A DNA stretch of 63,868 bases, counting the filler, from an uncultured Planctomycetales bacterium (lineage in GTDB: Bacteria; Omnitrophota; Gorgyraeia; Gygaellales; Profunditerraquicolaceae), in the NCBI GenBank assembly GCA_964487475.1. It is 4 parts of 4 records of this genome, joined end to end, with 100 filler letters (N's around TTAATTAATTAA, not from the genome) between each part and the next. Parts side by side here need not be neighbours in the genome. Positions count along the whole stretch, not along the records: positions 41,237 to 60,116 come from CAZAPM010000021.1; 3 more parts are not named here. The stretch is one strand, 5' to 3'. This document shows, one piece after another, positions 3,795 through 63,200 of the stretch. Under the pieces are notes generated by a model. The model was given only the letters and a program-made list of their open reading frames with translations. It did not search any database and was not told the DNA's origin. Each line of letters begins with the position of its first letter. The first letter of the stretch is position 1. A program made the translations under genes and the position numbers.

Positions 3795-3854
3795 CACCCT
3801 TGCTCTTCTTGCCCTCATCCCGAGGCACACGGAATATATCCGCTTGCTTCATAT

Positions 3855-4008
3855 GCACGGGCAGGTCTTCTGGCTCTCCCCTCACGGCAAATGCCTTCCC
3901 GCCCCAAACCACAGGCAGTGGCGCTTCATCTTGCCGGGTGTCCGTTTCCGGACGGGATTACAGCGGCGGGACCGCGGCTGATTCGCACAGCCTTCCCTTC
4001 ACCCATGC
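3855..4008 (-). ncRNA. Cobalamin riboswitch
   Basis: Minus strand AGGGAA, CCCGCCGCTGTAA, GCCACTG, GGGAAGG and B12 box AGCCAGAAGACCTGCC; upstream of btuFCD-like genes. Confidence 0.93.
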
Positions 4009-4025
4009 TTCAACTTGTTATTGTC

Positions 4026-12540: not shown

Positions 12541-12629
12541 TACCTACTGAAACGGCTAACCTGCAGCAATGCAGGGGCGCAAAGCGACAGGCCCCGTTGA
12601 CCCGGGGTGGCTGCGCTGCCAAAGGGGTG
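12541..12629 (+). ncRNA. c-di-GMP-I (GEMM) riboswitch
   Basis: GGCTAA-CCTGCA-GCAA-TGCAGG-GGCGCAAAGC core with GNRA loop, P3 GGCCCCG..GGGGTGGC, 3' GCTGCC. Confidence 0.85.
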
Positions 12630-22089: not shown

Positions 22090-22189
22090 NNNNNNNNNNN
22101 NNNNNNNNNNNNNNNNNNNNNNNNNNNNNNNNNTTAATTAATTAANNNNNNNNNNNNNNNNNNNNNNNNNNNNNNNNNNNNNNNNNNNN
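22090..22189. other. Artificial contig linker
   Basis: N-run containing TTAATTAATTAA (stops in all frames). Confidence 0.97.
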
Positions 22190-41136: not shown

Positions 41137-41236
41137 NNNNNNNNNNNNNNNNNNNNNNNNNNNNNNNNNNNNNNNNNNNNTTAATTAATTAANNNNNNNN
41201 NNNNNNNNNNNNNNNNNNNNNNNNNNNNNNNNNNNN
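41137..41236. other. Artificial contig linker
   Basis: N-run containing TTAATTAATTAA. Confidence 0.97.
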
Positions 41237-41512
41237 GCTCCCCCTCTAGGACTCGAACCTAGGACCTGGTGGTTACAAGTAACCCGGAATTACGTCCGGA
41301 CTTGGACTATATCTTTGTCTTGAGCCTTTCGGCTTTTAGACAGCGGGTGCATAGTCTCTGAACCTTCCCCAAACAGTTCTTGGGGCTCGGCTGCTGATTA
41401 CCCTCGCTTGCGCGTTCGGGCTTCCAGCAATTCTCCCACAGTTTCAACTATGGTTTCCCATAGAAGCTGCCGATTTGACAGCCACTCGCTCTACCGACTG
41501 AGCTAAGGGGGA
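41237..41512 (-). tRNA. tRNA-Asn(GTT), intron-split; exons 41512-41478 and 41275-41237; CCA cut by contig end
   Basis: Acceptor TCCCCCT/AGGGGGA, D arm GCTC..GAGC, anticodon loop CT GT^T AA, T arm CTAGG-TTCGAGT-CCTAG, discriminator G. Confidence 0.93.
41276..41477 (-). ncRNA. Group I self-splicing intron, 202 nt, no ORF
   Basis: P AATTGCTGGAAG, Q AATCAGCAG, R GTTCAGAGACTA, S AAGATATAGTCC; P1 with U.G at the 5' splice site; terminal G. Confidence 0.93.
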
Positions 41513-41559: not shown

Positions 41560-41588
41560 ATTCTACCCTAAAGACGCCACTATTTCAA
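41560..41588 (-). promoter_or_regulatory. Sigma70-type promoter of the tRNA gene
   Basis: TTGAAA-N17-TAGAAT. Confidence 0.75.
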
Positions 41589-41596
41589 GCAATAAA

Positions 41597-43378
41597 TTAG
41601 GCGATTATCTGGGCTTCCAGGCTCTTGATATCGTCTTCTATCTCCGCCAACCGCATCTCGATCTCCTTAAGCCTGCGGCCATACTCTGCCGCCGTAGGCT
41701 CCTCGCGGTAAAAATGAGGGTTGGAAAGCGCCCGCACCTTGGCGTAGCTCTCGATTTGCAGGTTTTCACGCTCCTTTTCAAGCTTGGTGATCCTCTCGCG
41801 CACCAGCGTATTGTGTTTCTTGCGGTTCTTCTCCTCTTCCTTGCGCGAATGCTGCTCCTGGCGCTGGCGCTCCTTCTCGTCATCCGCCTTTTTGGCCTGC
41901 GGCTGATGGTGCGGCTGCCGGCGGGCCGGCAGGGACGGGTCTTTTCCGAAGGAATCCTTCTTCTCCAGGTAATAATCGAAATTTCCGGGGAACTTGCGGA
42001 CACTCCCCTGCTTTACCTCATACACGCAGTTGGCAACGGAACGGACGAAGTAAATATCGTGGCTGATGCAGACGATCGTGCCTTCGTACTCCTTAAGGGC
42101 GCGGACCAACGCCTCCACCGCATCCACGTCCAGATGGGTCGTCGGCTCATCCAGCAGCAGGAAGTTCGGGGGGTCGATCAGGAGCTTGGCCAGGATCAGA
42201 CGGCTTTTCTCGCCTCCGGAAAGGACCCTGACCTTCTTGTCGGCATCATCCCCGGAAAAAAGGAACGCGCCGAGGATGGTACGCACCGCCTCCGACGCCA
42301 TATACCCGGGTGCTGCGGTATACGCCTCCTGCAGCACGGTGTTCTCGGGATTGAGAACATCCAGGCGGGTCTGGGAAAAATATCCCGGTTCCACATTATA
42401 GCCGATCTTACGCATCCCGGAATCGATAGGGATTACCCCGGCCAGGATCTTAAGGAGCGTCGACTTGCCCGCCCCGTTCTCCCCGGCCAGCACCGCCTTC
42501 TCCCCCACTTCGATCTCGAAATCGAAATCCTTGTATACCTGGATATCTCCGTAGGCTTTAGAGATCTTCTCTAAGGTAACCACCCGCTGGCCGCTCCTCT
42601 TCGCCGCCGGGAAACGGAAGTTCTGGATGCTCTCCCTTGTATCCGGAGGAAGCACGATGGATTCCTTTTCCAGACGCTCCAGCTGGGTGCGCTTGGCGCG
42701 TACTGCCGCAGCCTTATTGGGCTGGGCGTGGAAACGGGAGACGAAGGTCTCCAGCTGCTCCTTCTTCTTCTCCTGTTCCTTGTACTGCTTCTCGAGCATC
42801 ACCCGGCGCTCGGCTTTGAGGGATTCGTAGTGCTCGTAATTGCCGCGCACTTTGGCGATCGAGCCGTGCTCGAGGATCAACGTATAATTGGTGACGTCGG
42901 TCAAGAACGCCTTGTCATGCGAGATCATGATGAAGGTGCCGTCAAAACCCGCCAGGTAATCCTTAAGCCACAANNNNNNNNNNNNNNNNNNNNNNNNNNN
43001 NNNNNNNNNNNNNNNNNNNNNNNNNNNNNNNNNNNNNNNNNNNNNNNNNNNNNNNNNNNNNNNNNNNNNNNNNAGGGATTCCTTCTCCTTGACCAGCTTC
43101 GTCACCCGCTCGTCCCCCTCGGTCAGTTCCTGCAGGACGGTGCGCTCGGAGTGGAAACTCGACTCCTGCGCCAGGTAGCCGATGGTCAGGTTCTTCAAAA
43201 GCTGAACCTCTCCGGAGGAAGGCTCTACTTCCCCGCGGATCAGGCCGAAAAGTGTCGACTTGCCCGCGCCGTTGGGGCCGATCAAACCTACCCGCTCCCC
43301 GCGGTTGATGGTGATGGAGATGTTCTCGAAAAGTACTTTCGGGCCGTAATTTTTTGAAAGATTGCTTATGGTTATCAT
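41597..43378 (-). CDS. ABC-F family ATPase (spans scaffold gap 42974-43073)
   Basis: Two Walker A motifs (GPNGAGKST, GENGAGKST), SHD, GNY, LSGGEK, DEPT; no TM. Confidence 0.9.
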   Translation of the reverse strand: MITISNLSKNYGPKVLFENISITINRGERVGLIGPNGAGKSTLFGLIRGEVEPSSGEVQLLKNLTIGYLAQESSFHSERTVLQELTEGDERVTKLVKEKESXXXXXXXXXXXXXXXXXXXXXXXXXXXXXXXXXXLWLKDYLAGFDGTFIMISHDKAFLTDVTNYTLILEHGSIAKVRGNYEHYESLKAERRVMLEKQYKEQEKKKEQLETFVSRFHAQPNKAAAVRAKRTQLERLEKESIVLPPDTRESIQNFRFPAAKRSGQRVVTLEKISKAYGDIQVYKDFDFEIEVGEKAVLAGENGAGKSTLLKILAGVIPIDSGMRKIGYNVEPGYFSQTRLDVLNPENTVLQEAYTAAPGYMASEAVRTILGAFLFSGDDADKKVRVLSGGEKSRLILAKLLIDPPNFLLLDEPTTHLDVDAVEALVRALKEYEGTIVCISHDIYFVRSVANCVYEVKQGSVRKFPGNFDYYLEKKDSFGKDPSLPARRQPHHQPQAKKADDEKERQRQEQHSRKEEEKNRKKHNTLVRERITKLEKERENLQIESYAKVRALSNPHFYREEPTAAEYGRRLKEIEMRLAEIEDDIKSLEAQIIA

Positions 43379-60116: not shown

Positions 60117-60216
60117 NNNNNNNNNNNNNNNNNNNNNNNNNNNNNNNNNNNNNNNNNNNNTTAATTAATTAANNNNNNNNNNNNNNNNNNNNNNNNNNNN
60201 NNNNNNNNNNNNNNNN
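60117..60216. other. Artificial contig linker
   Basis: N-run containing TTAATTAATTAA. Confidence 0.97.
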
Positions 60217-63200
60217 GGATACGCGGGATTCTGCTTACGGATCAGGAACTTGCCCGTATCCTGCTGCCAGATGTAATCCGCATACTGTTCCACCACGAAC
60301 CTCATGGCGTGGTGCGTCTCATGCATCTGCTTCTGGGCGAACTCGTTGATCACGTACTCCACGGAAAGGCAACGGTCCCCGCCCTCTTCCCTGGTCAGGG
60401 TATCGCGGTCGATACGGCGCTCAAGCCTGATCTTTACATCATTGAACACCACTGCTACCAGCAGATCGAGCTCCTTGCGGATCTCGCCGTTCAAGCCCAT
60501 ATAGGGGGAATCGGTAAGGAGCACGTCGTATGGCGGATCGAACTCCTGCTTCTTGTCACCGGAAACATGAGGCTCAAAAGGCAGCTTTCCGCCCTTCTTG
60601 CCGTACTTGATGCTCTGCAGCGCGCGGTGATAGGTCCCTTCGTCGTAGATCGCAGGACCCTGCAGGATCACGTCGCGCATGCCGCCCGACTGCTCATAGC
60701 GGAAGTGGTTGCCCAGATGCAGGAAGATATCGGAGCCGGCGACATACACCTTTAAGCCCTGCTTCTCCAGGTCCTTCTGCAGGTGCCTGATAAAGCTGGA
60801 GGTACCGGCCGAAGAAGCCCCCATCACGCCGACCGTGATGCACTGGCCGGCCTTACCCTTGCGCACCTCCATAATGCGATTCGCGAGCTCCTCTCTTACC
60901 CGGGTTCCCGCAGCATGGATAAGCGTTTTGCTGGTCTCCTTGATCTGATTGGTGATGCGCTTGGTCTGTTTCTTGCGCATTCCGGCGGTAAGGGTGGTAT
61001 CGGCGCGTGCCCTTTCCCGCTGCCGGCGGAATCCTGATATCTTGCGCTGCGCCTTCTTCCATGTTTCGCGATAATCGAATTCCACGACGCGGTATGCGCC
61101 GCTTTCCTCCAATGTCCGCAGGCTCATGTCTTCGGGCAGATACAGCGTCTCGCCGTTGGCATAGCTCGGATGCTGCACCGCGATGAGGAGGTTATTCGCC
61201 GCGGTCCCGCGCAGATGGGGAGCGACCGCAAGAGCAGCTCCTGCCGCGGCTTCCTGTACGGCATATTCGCGCAGCGCAGCGCTCAAGCGCTGCACATCCA
61301 TCCTCTTGCCTTCCAGATAATATGCATACAGCGCCAAAATATCACCCTCGCCGACCTTAAGGTAACCGAACATCTTGTTCTCGAGCACAGCCAGACGCTT
61401 GTAGATCTCCGCCTTGAACGCTCCGGTCGGGTCTTTACGGGTATCGTAGTTATTCAGCAGCGCGAAGAAATAAGGCAGGTCCTTCTTCTCGGTGGCGTAA
61501 TCGAGATAGAACAAGTCGAGCTCGCTGACCCCTGCACCGCGGGCATGGGACGGGGAGAAGTGCAACTCCTGCATGCTCGCAAAGGAATGGCTGAAGTCGC
61601 ATTCCGTGATCATGACGAAGTATTCCATGAAGAGGTGTGCCACCACCTGAGTGATGAACTTCTTGTGCTGGCCCTGGCCGTAGAGGTCGAAGATGCCGCG
61701 GGTGATGTGCACGTAGTAAATATTCTCCGCCGGATCCTTATTGATGAAGCTCAGGATCCCCATGTACCCGAACTCGATTCCTTCCGGACGGGGATAGAAC
61801 ACCTCTCCCGGACCAAGGTCGTCAACGATGATACGCACGGTCCCGTCATGGAGGTACTGCACCAGGCGGTCATAGATCAGGGACGGCTTGCGTTCGTTGA
61901 TCCAGGAAGCCACCCTTCCGGCGAGGGCGGCGGTATCGGTGATCACCTTGCCCTCTGACGCCAGCCGTGCGGAAAGCGCCACCAGCGCATCCTGCTCCTG
62001 GGGAGAGACTTTTGCGGTACCGGGCGCCTTCTTCACTTCCACCCCGTCGCGATGTACGGTGACCGAAGGAGCGACCTGCTTAAGCGGCATCTTCAACCGG
62101 CGGTAAAGCGCCGCCTGGAAGCTGCCCGTAGGATCGAGGTTCGGGTTGTAGTTCTCCACCAGGGAATCAAGGTAATTGGCGTTACCGATCTCGAGGTAGA
62201 ACAGGTCAAGATCGCTCACCCCCAGCTTCCGCGCCTCATCGCTCGCAAAGTAGATCTCCTGGATACAGGCATGGTGATGGCGGGTCAGGCCGCTGGGCGC
62301 AAGCACCAGATGATCGAAATACTCGTGCACCACCAGCTGGGCCATGAACTCCAGGTTGGGGCTGAAATGCTCGTACGCCGCCTTGGTGACATGCACGAAG
62401 TAAACCGGCATAAAGGTCTCTTTGAGCTTACGGGTATGCGGGGTCTCCTCAGCGGTGCGCTGCTCGAAGGTATCCTTATCGATGATCTGGCCGGTAATGT
62501 CATTGACGTACCACTGATCGATGTANNNNNNNNNNNNNNNNNNNNNNNNNNNNNNNNNNNNNNNNNNNNNNNNNNNNNNNNNNNNNNNNNNNNNNNNNNN
62601 NNNNNNNNNNNNNNNNNNNNNNNNNTGGTGCGCGAACTGCTTCAGGTTGGCGATACGCTGCTCGAAATCCCCGGCCTTGTCATTGCCCTTGCGGCGGGCG
62701 ATACCCTGCACGCGCTTGAAGTTACCCGCGGCGCCGGCCTGCACGCCGGGTGCCGCATCCTCGACCATCATGGCATGCGCCGGATCGGTGCCCAGGCGGC
62801 GGGCGCATTCGATGAAAAGCCACGGCGAAGGCTTGGACTGGGCAGCGGTATTGGTCACGTCCAGACCGCAGACAATGGCATCGAAGAGCTCGAAAAGCCC
62901 GACACCCTTCAGGACCTTCGGGGTATTCTTGGACGCGGAGGCGATACCGACCTTGATCCCGGCAGCTTTCAGCTGCTTGACGAGAACGACCGCATCCTCG
63001 AACACATCCGCCTTGGCGGCACCGGTATCCAGAAGCTCGTTAAACCTTATATTCTTGGCGTTGGCGATACCGGAAATATCGAAATATGCATCGGCGCCAT
63101 CCCACACGTAGACGGTATCCTTAGCCTTGTCATCACCGTAGGACAGCTGCTCTGCGGTAAAGCCGCGGCTTCTGAAGAACGCTTCGGTCCCGCGGTAGCG

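Follow-up and report, generated by a model that had tools for sequence, protein, structure and literature searches.

A compact group I intron within the anticodon of an Omnitrophota tRNA-Asn gene, probably derived from HNH-carrying introns

Introduction

Does a minus-strand locus in an Omnitrophota genome hold a tRNA-Asn gene whose anticodon is interrupted by a group I intron and, if so, how did the intron come to be there? Nakagawa and colleagues reportedly described, in 2025, introns between positions 35 and 36 of tRNA-Asn and tRNA-Asp that splice in vitro. Nearly all introns of Patescibacteria are said to belong to subgroup IA, and the site is said to be rare in other phyla.

A tFind survey of 5,292 introns, mapped by U-1 and omega-G, added 17 new tRNA settings to the 4 known before, for a total of 21; the word ‘Asn’ is absent from its running text, tables and figures apart (Williams 2020, bioRxiv 10.1101/2020.01.27.920355). 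A novel tRNA insertion site in Patescibacteria is named in the available part of a 2025 preprint (Nakagawa, Amikura, Omae, Suzuki; bioRxiv 10.1101/2025.07.03.662931). tRNAscan-SE is stated, in source text available in part, not to detect group I tRNA introns. A literature search, covering the two closest sources in part, returned no account of tRNA-Asn 35/36 introns in Omnitrophota or of their HNH proteins.

Results

The interrupted gene

The window, that is, the whole 63,868-nt stretch of DNA analysed here, consists of contigs C19, C20, C21 and C28 joined end to end. Within C21, on the minus strand of the window, a 5' exon, an intron and a 3' exon follow one another (Table 1). When the exons are joined, ARAGORN recognizes a canonical tRNA-Asn(gtt) with G73 and an A27.C43 mismatch, the latter being common to the intact tRNA-Asn alleles of the family. 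Three registers with a U before the intron and a G at its end were tried; insertion between U35 and U36 alone gave a normal 7-nt loop and a sense anticodon, the other two leading to abnormal loops. The original prediction of a tRNA-Asn(GUU) with a 35-nt 5' exon, split at 35/36 within the anticodon, is confirmed to the base. This insertion point places the intron in the tRNA-Asn 35/36 class. Also as predicted, standard tools pass over the gene: ARAGORN reported no tRNA in the window with introns disallowed, and miscalled the gene as tRNA-Asp(gtc) with introns allowed.

The 3' end of the tRNA coincides with the end of C21, the last 55 nt of which overlap the start of contig C13. CCA is absent from the gene DNA; beyond the overlap, C13 has a run of T and a terminator-like hairpin. 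A putative sigma70-like promoter upstream likely drives the split gene, judging from its sequence. Between this promoter match and the tRNA, a second terminator-like hairpin with a T-rich tail (41553-41537, minus strand) is within chance level; it may serve as the terminator of the ABC-ATPase gene upstream (41597-43378) or act on the tRNA as an attenuator.

Table 1. Features of the split tRNA-Asn locus, numbered along the window.
Feature	Position	Strand	Description
Putative sigma70-like promoter	41560..41588	-	TTGAAA, 17 nt, TAGAAT; 10/12 matches; 1 found vs 0.3 in shuffles
tRNA-Asn 5' exon, positions 1-35	41478..41512	-	35 nt; ends C32 U33 G34 U35
Group I intron	41276..41477	-	202 nt; without ORF; compact core without P7.1/P7.2 or P5abc
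P1 helix	41467..41481	-	Exon CUGU and intron +1 pair with internal guide; U35.G wobble marks 5' splice site
P2 hairpin	41448..41463	-	GAAA loop; two-sided changes in 6/6 pairs
P3	41439-41435 with 41347-41343	-	Encloses P4-P5-P6 domain (41429-41362)
P7	41358-41352 with 41309-41304	-	Bulged A; predicted G-binding pair G41356-C41305
P8	41342-41316	-	Sits between the two P7 strands
P9.0 (AAGU/ACUU) and P9 with GUAA loop	41277..41303	-	Paired in fold and alignment
Terminal omega G, 3' splice site	41276	-	From sequence and joined-exon register
tRNA-Asn 3' exon, positions 36-74	41237..41275	-	39 nt; starts U36 A37 A38

Anatomy of the ribozyme

The assignment to group I was borne out by a search with Rfam model RF00028, which matched positions 41489-41283 over model positions 1-253 (72.2 bits, cut-off 50; E 2.2e-16). 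This match at the split tRNA-Asn is the only one in the genome. The minimum free energy fold recovers P1-P6, P8, P9.0 and P9 (z -2.94; 2 of 200 shuffles as good); P7, a pseudoknot absent from that fold, was placed by hand. All helices from P1 to P9.0 can be drawn with standard pairs, and the core pairs are all intact. The intron thus has the hallmarks of group I: a P3-P7 core with P, Q, R and S elements, a G-C binding pair with a bulged A in P7, and the U.G at the splice site, P9.0 and terminal G described originally. The role of the P7 G-C pair as the guanosine-binding site is part of established group I structure.

The P1 loop has 5 nt in the present copy, where relatives have hairpins or an HNH gene, and the P8 receptor is non-canonical. 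P9 was predicted to be GNRA-capped; the GUAA loop is present, but it is flanked by C.U, unlike the A-U closure of most relatives. P7.1 and P7.2 are absent, with few nucleotides between P7 and the 3' strand of P3, which sets the intron apart from subgroup IA. Its anatomy fits the features of subgroup IC3 (a compact core, P2, a short P5 extension, no P5abc or P7.1, and GNRA loops on P2 and P9), and on this anatomical basis it is a candidate IC3 intron. Protein-spliced tRNA introns are short, usually at 37/38, and without a ribozyme core; an archaeal or eukaryotic intron of this kind is ruled out by the 35/36 site and the full ribozyme core.

Covariation among introns at the same site

The covariation in 15 aligned Omnitrophota introns counts as support, not as a probability, because the result is favoured by a structure drawn on the present copy and by the relatedness of the rows: 97.5% of cells pair, two-sided changes occur in 22 of 49 pairs, and this level of pairing was reached by 0 of 500 shuffles, slid controls pairing at 30-46%. 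The U35.G wobble is found in all 15 introns, as is an invariant P7, and the identical five P7 pairs recur in 116 of 118 same-site introns. Counts that involve the guide use 96 of these 118, the 22 without a guide anchor being left out; L001 (a duplicate of L002) and L007 and L014 (both cut by contig ends) were dropped before the counts. In 80 of the 96, intron position +1 is the complement of the base that precedes the guide GCAG (27.5 on average in shuffles, 44 at most); this sets the splice site after U35. The 2-bp P9.0 pairs in 93.

The original prediction drew P1 with six pairs (GCUGUC/GGCAGC). The sixth, G31-C, can form but is not a conserved feature, as no covariation is seen at exon base 31: in 28 of 29 introns with exon A or C there, the guide still has its C. 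Conserved P1 therefore has five pairs, namely C32-G, U33-A, G34-C, U35.G and the +1 pair. A short J7/3 without P7.1/P7.2 occurs in 40 of the 118 introns, and peripheral loops vary freely (180-618 nt). No consistent P10 pairing was seen by eye in the aligned introns. Five loci (L009, L010, L011, L012 and L019) have extra hairpins in the P4 5' strand and other loops, to about 170 nt in total, with the core paired.

Host genome

The host genome (1.87 Mb, 36 contigs, 94.6% complete, 0.4% contaminated) belongs to Omnitrophota rather than Patescibacteria according to RecR on the intron's contig. The organism-named RecR matches among the best 120 are all from Omnitrophota, in line with the earlier remark that the gene content is not CPR-like. 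The accompanying worry about misbinning appears unfounded: it is unlikely because of these matches, a contig GC of 59% like that of the rest, and the presence of the intron in 37 of 120 other family genomes.

The original prediction also raised whether the genome has another tRNA-Asn. BLAST and anticodon-arm motif searches found no intact tRNA-Asn elsewhere in the 94.6% complete assembly, and two further ARAGORN Asn calls were not tRNA-like on inspection. Splicing of the split gene is therefore likely essential for the host; at this completeness, in 36 contigs, a second tRNA-Asn could be unassembled.

Several other features of the window were recorded. The N linkers (22090-22189, 41137-41236, 60117-60216) carry a six-frame stop spacer, and the features flanking them are not neighbours; 100-N scaffold gaps lie at 42974-43073 and 62526-62625. 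A tandem 896-nt duplication (35764-36659/36733-37627, 99.9% identical), with a radical-SAM-like gene bearing a CxxxCxxC motif, is a recent event or an assembly artefact. Rfam models matched a cobalamin riboswitch at 3843-4021 on the minus strand (84 bits) and a c-di-GMP-I riboswitch at 12544-12623 on the plus strand (64 bits).

Distribution of the intron and its empty site

In the family, 121 genomes with a completeness of 85% or more were compared: 38 have the intron and 51 an intact gene, one (G036) having both; 33 have neither. Both intron and intact states are found within five genera. At the level of the phylum, 33 of 301 genomes match, all of them in the host's class, and control matches are zero. 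Empty alleles join exactly at the intron position and read CUGUUAA.

DNA contigs in three of four sequencing runs (X1-X3) skip exactly 202 nt. Splicing was rejected as the cause, as these are DNA and have two other letters in the 3' exon; these letters indicate empty alleles of other strains or species. In run X2, cover extends over the upstream flank with no mismatch and is missing from the intron, a gap that alone proves nothing.

About 2,800 GTDB stretches are estimated to match the junction pattern, extrapolating from 3 of 64 parts. We sampled 120 such loci, which comprised 100 Asn 35/36 introns, one intact tRNA-Thr and 19 loci without a 5' exon in the available DNA, 15 of which had only 300-nt flanks that hide long introns. 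By record title, some of which may be wrong for MAGs (L101 has a Planctomycetales title and the family's exons), the 100 introns divide into 54 from Patescibacteria, 39 from other phyla and 7 unlabelled; titles outside Patescibacteria include Acidobacteriota (6), Pseudomonadota (6), Nitrospirota (4), Omnitrophota (4) and Cyanobacteriota (3). With 39 of 100 from other phyla, the rarity outside Patescibacteria that was originally implied is not supported.

An HNH-like gene in relatives

As first noted, the present intron encodes no homing endonuclease: it has neither an ORF, such as a homing intron would carry, nor an HNH remnant. No homologue of the relatives' HNH was found in the host genome by profile, and the best protein search match had an E value of 0.07 and contained stops. 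In relatives, an intact ORF of about 100 aa lies in the P1 loop and runs on into the guide and P2. The gene for I-Ssp6803I, the endonuclease of the Synechocystis tRNA-fMet intron, presumably lies in the P1 loop too. As 300-nt flanks hide long introns, the share of HNH carriers was taken from 76 resolved GTDB loci with flanks to 1,000 nt; intact ORFs were present in 18 of these well-covered copies and 5 of 19 intron-bearing relatives, and total 23 among the 118 same-site introns. Decayed ORFs are found in four more copies, L043 with a stop, L094 with a frameshift, and L102 and L093 as remnants. The relatives of the intron thus display four states: an empty site, an intron with an intact HNH, one with a decayed HNH and one with none.

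The CxxC, HH and CxNCH motifs of the ORF, which include the H, N and H positions of the HNH motif, are invariant in 23 of 23 copies. Pfam HNH scored the relatives' ORFs at 15-18 bits, below the cut-off of 21.4. The best PDB sequence match was the C-terminal part of a group II maturase (residues 473-548, E 1.5e-4), with McrA also matched. A structural model had a pLDDT of 88.5, and its top fold matches were HNH-type, though not significant, with E values of at least 0.09 where 0.001 was the threshold. The ORF may code for an HNH-like protein that binds zinc. At 72-86% identity, complete ORFs still retain their start signals and the invariant motif, implying that activity is under selection.

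Intron phylogeny and signals of gain and loss

The nearest intron is L004, an HNH carrier of the same family (84% identity over 191 columns), and the next enclosing supported set adds L101, another HNH carrier. On the tree of 118 ribozyme cores, built on 250 columns with bootstrap not settled, HNH state changes 24 times, compared to 24.6 for shuffled labels. The HNH proteins of Omnitrophota form one group (98/98) that spans two core types, which resemble each other at about 65-71%. That core types A and B invaded Omnitrophota separately is not established, since a single clade of both has a p-AU of 0.06 with five rows left out. Introns and HNH proteins of Acidobacteriota and of Nitrospirota each form one group, as do the introns of Cyanobacteriota. 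Such grouping by host phylum is explained equally well by recent homing and by a long vertical history in which the intron was lost repeatedly.

The exon pair G31-C39 is present in 39 of 39 family intron matches, whereas the intact matches divide into 24 of 53 with G31-C39 and 29 of 53 with A31-U39. In G255 (L155, G255:C12), compared with L156 and L157, the exons combine donor-like bases at the junction with the variable loop of the genus' intact alleles; this chimera, a single case, looks like a short co-conversion tract. Together, the bias and the chimera are hints of target specificity and co-conversion among kin that are not independent.

Within one order, the two core types occupy the same site (L013, L015-L018, L020, L021 and L109 versus L002-L012 and L019). 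Their P2 and P9 are near-identical, their P3-P6 sequences differ with compensatory changes in P4, and one HNH group is common to both. Core exchange is a possible explanation.

Discussion

We consider it highly probable that the locus holds a compact 35/36 tRNA-Asn intron that likely self-splices and likely descends from a mobile intron with an HNH gene, since lost. Direct observation covers the anatomy, the junction, the single tRNA-Asn copy of the assembly and the four states in relatives. On the basis of the anatomy, we would expect with strong confidence that the intron splices itself in two guanosine-initiated steps. The guide would pair with exon CUGU and free guanosine bound in P7 would attack after U35; U35 would then attack after the terminal G, rejoining G-U-U. 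The anticodon stem likely retains the exon G31-C39 pair, which would keep the two splice sites together. The host genome has a TGT gene, and queuosine would be addable at G34 only after splicing.

Descent from an HNH-bearing intron through loss of the P1-loop insert is probable, and the present copy best fits the stage of a homing cycle at which the endonuclease has been lost. Empty tRNA-Asn alleles would have been cleaved by an HNH nuclease whose gene lay in the P1 loop, and the intron would have been copied into them. After fixation, the ORF would have been deleted, and the intron would persist because only its exact loss is viable.

Other histories can be envisaged. An old intron, HNH-bearing in the ancestor of the class, may have been inherited vertically and since then only lost, with no recent homing. 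The confinement of all phylum matches to the host's class, the single group of Omnitrophota HNH proteins and the failure to reject a joint clade of the two core types all agree with this history, which we nevertheless regard as rather unlikely: it needs many exact losses inside five mixed genera, and it is at odds with the ORFs that remain intact, with start signals and invariant motif, at their present divergence. The uniform G31-C39 exons of intron carriers and the tract-like exons of G255, one case, likewise argue against it. It is very improbable that the intron is a dead relic in a pseudogene, with the functional tRNA-Asn missing from the assembly. The core pairs are all intact, the promoter match is good, and only 1 of 38 intron-bearing family genomes has an intact copy too; these points weigh against a relic even though the genome is a draft, CCA is not encoded, and the C.U at the P9 loop, the P8 receptor and A27.C43 are irregular, the last of these being found in intact family alleles as well.

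A different register or identity can be practically discounted. Many relatives' introns end in GUG, which makes a 33/34 U/G register, and thus an intron in tRNA-Thr(UGU), formally possible there, and ARAGORN favours tRNA-Asp. For the present copy both are refuted: the 33/34 register lacks a terminal G, P1 pairs U33 with A and U35 with G, the empty alleles have the Asn sequence, and intact Thr(UGU) and Asp(GUC) genes are present elsewhere in the genome. It has reportedly been proposed, from Patescibacteria, that tRNA introns act as regulatory switches. Retention of the intron to gate tRNA-Asn supply would suit a small-genomed host lineage in which Asn decoding would require splicing, but patchy presence inside genera and freely varying loops fit a tolerated selfish element, and we judge such a switch improbable.

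The self-splicing, formerly mobile intron favoured here resembles known systems to differing degrees. It is of the same element class as the 35/36 introns of Patescibacteria but resides in Omnitrophota, and, in contrast to most same-site introns, its core is without P7.1/P7.2. Excerpts on the Azoarcus BH72 pre-tRNA-Ile intron describe a 205-nt group I intron with P2-P9 and P9.0 (PMC13168695), which the accessible part of the tFind survey assigns to subgroup IC3 (Williams 2020, bioRxiv 10.1101/2020.01.27.920355). As far as those excerpts go, the two are alike in size, anticodon-loop location, element set and lack of large peripheral domains, and differ in tRNA and site (PMC13168695). The Synechocystis PCC 6803 tRNA-fMet intron is described, in the available part of its report, as 655 nt long and encoding active I-Ssp6803I, a PD-(D/E)XK enzyme of 150 aa directed at the anticodon region (PMC1995217). 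From the same partial source, it shares with the present intron its nature as a tRNA group I intron of patchy presence, whereas the relatives' ORF is HNH-like and about 100 aa long and the present copy encodes none (PMC1995217).

The intron is of a kind already reported and common, one of an estimated few thousand at tRNA-Asn 35/36, and a single ORF-less copy alone is unsurprising. Its contribution lies in the prevalence in Omnitrophota, the compact core type and its place at the ORF-less end of a visible series of gain and loss. It also carries the range of an insertion site named only recently far outside Patescibacteria. There are also practical consequences for annotation. In 38 of 88 family genomes with a detectable tRNA-Asn, the gene is hidden from standard finders or miscalled as Asp, and tRNA counts and MAG quality calls are affected in an estimated 2,300-2,800 GTDB stretches.

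A broader reading is offered tentatively, with somewhat less than even confidence. The 35/36 position of tRNA-Asn may be a multi-phylum homing site served by one HNH family that has received little study, with a 5' cassette (P1-loop HNH, guide and P2) that moves between cores with and without P7.1/P7.2. One Omnitrophota class would then show the whole cycle of empty, invaded, decaying and ORF-less sites, with A31-U39 alleles escaping cutting and short co-conversion tracts. If true, this would overturn the view that 35/36 introns are confined to CPR bacteria, for the most part lack an endonuclease and seldom move between hosts. The 202-nt ribozyme, its matched empty alleles and its HNH-bearing kin provide a test set for splicing, target recognition and the gain, decay and loss of homing endonucleases. 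Among Cyanobacteria, three loci (L069, L091, L038) carry an Asn 35/36 intron, including those of the cultured Floridaenema evergladense BLCC-F167 and a complete Phormidium chromosome; these organisms are accessible hosts for in vivo tests.
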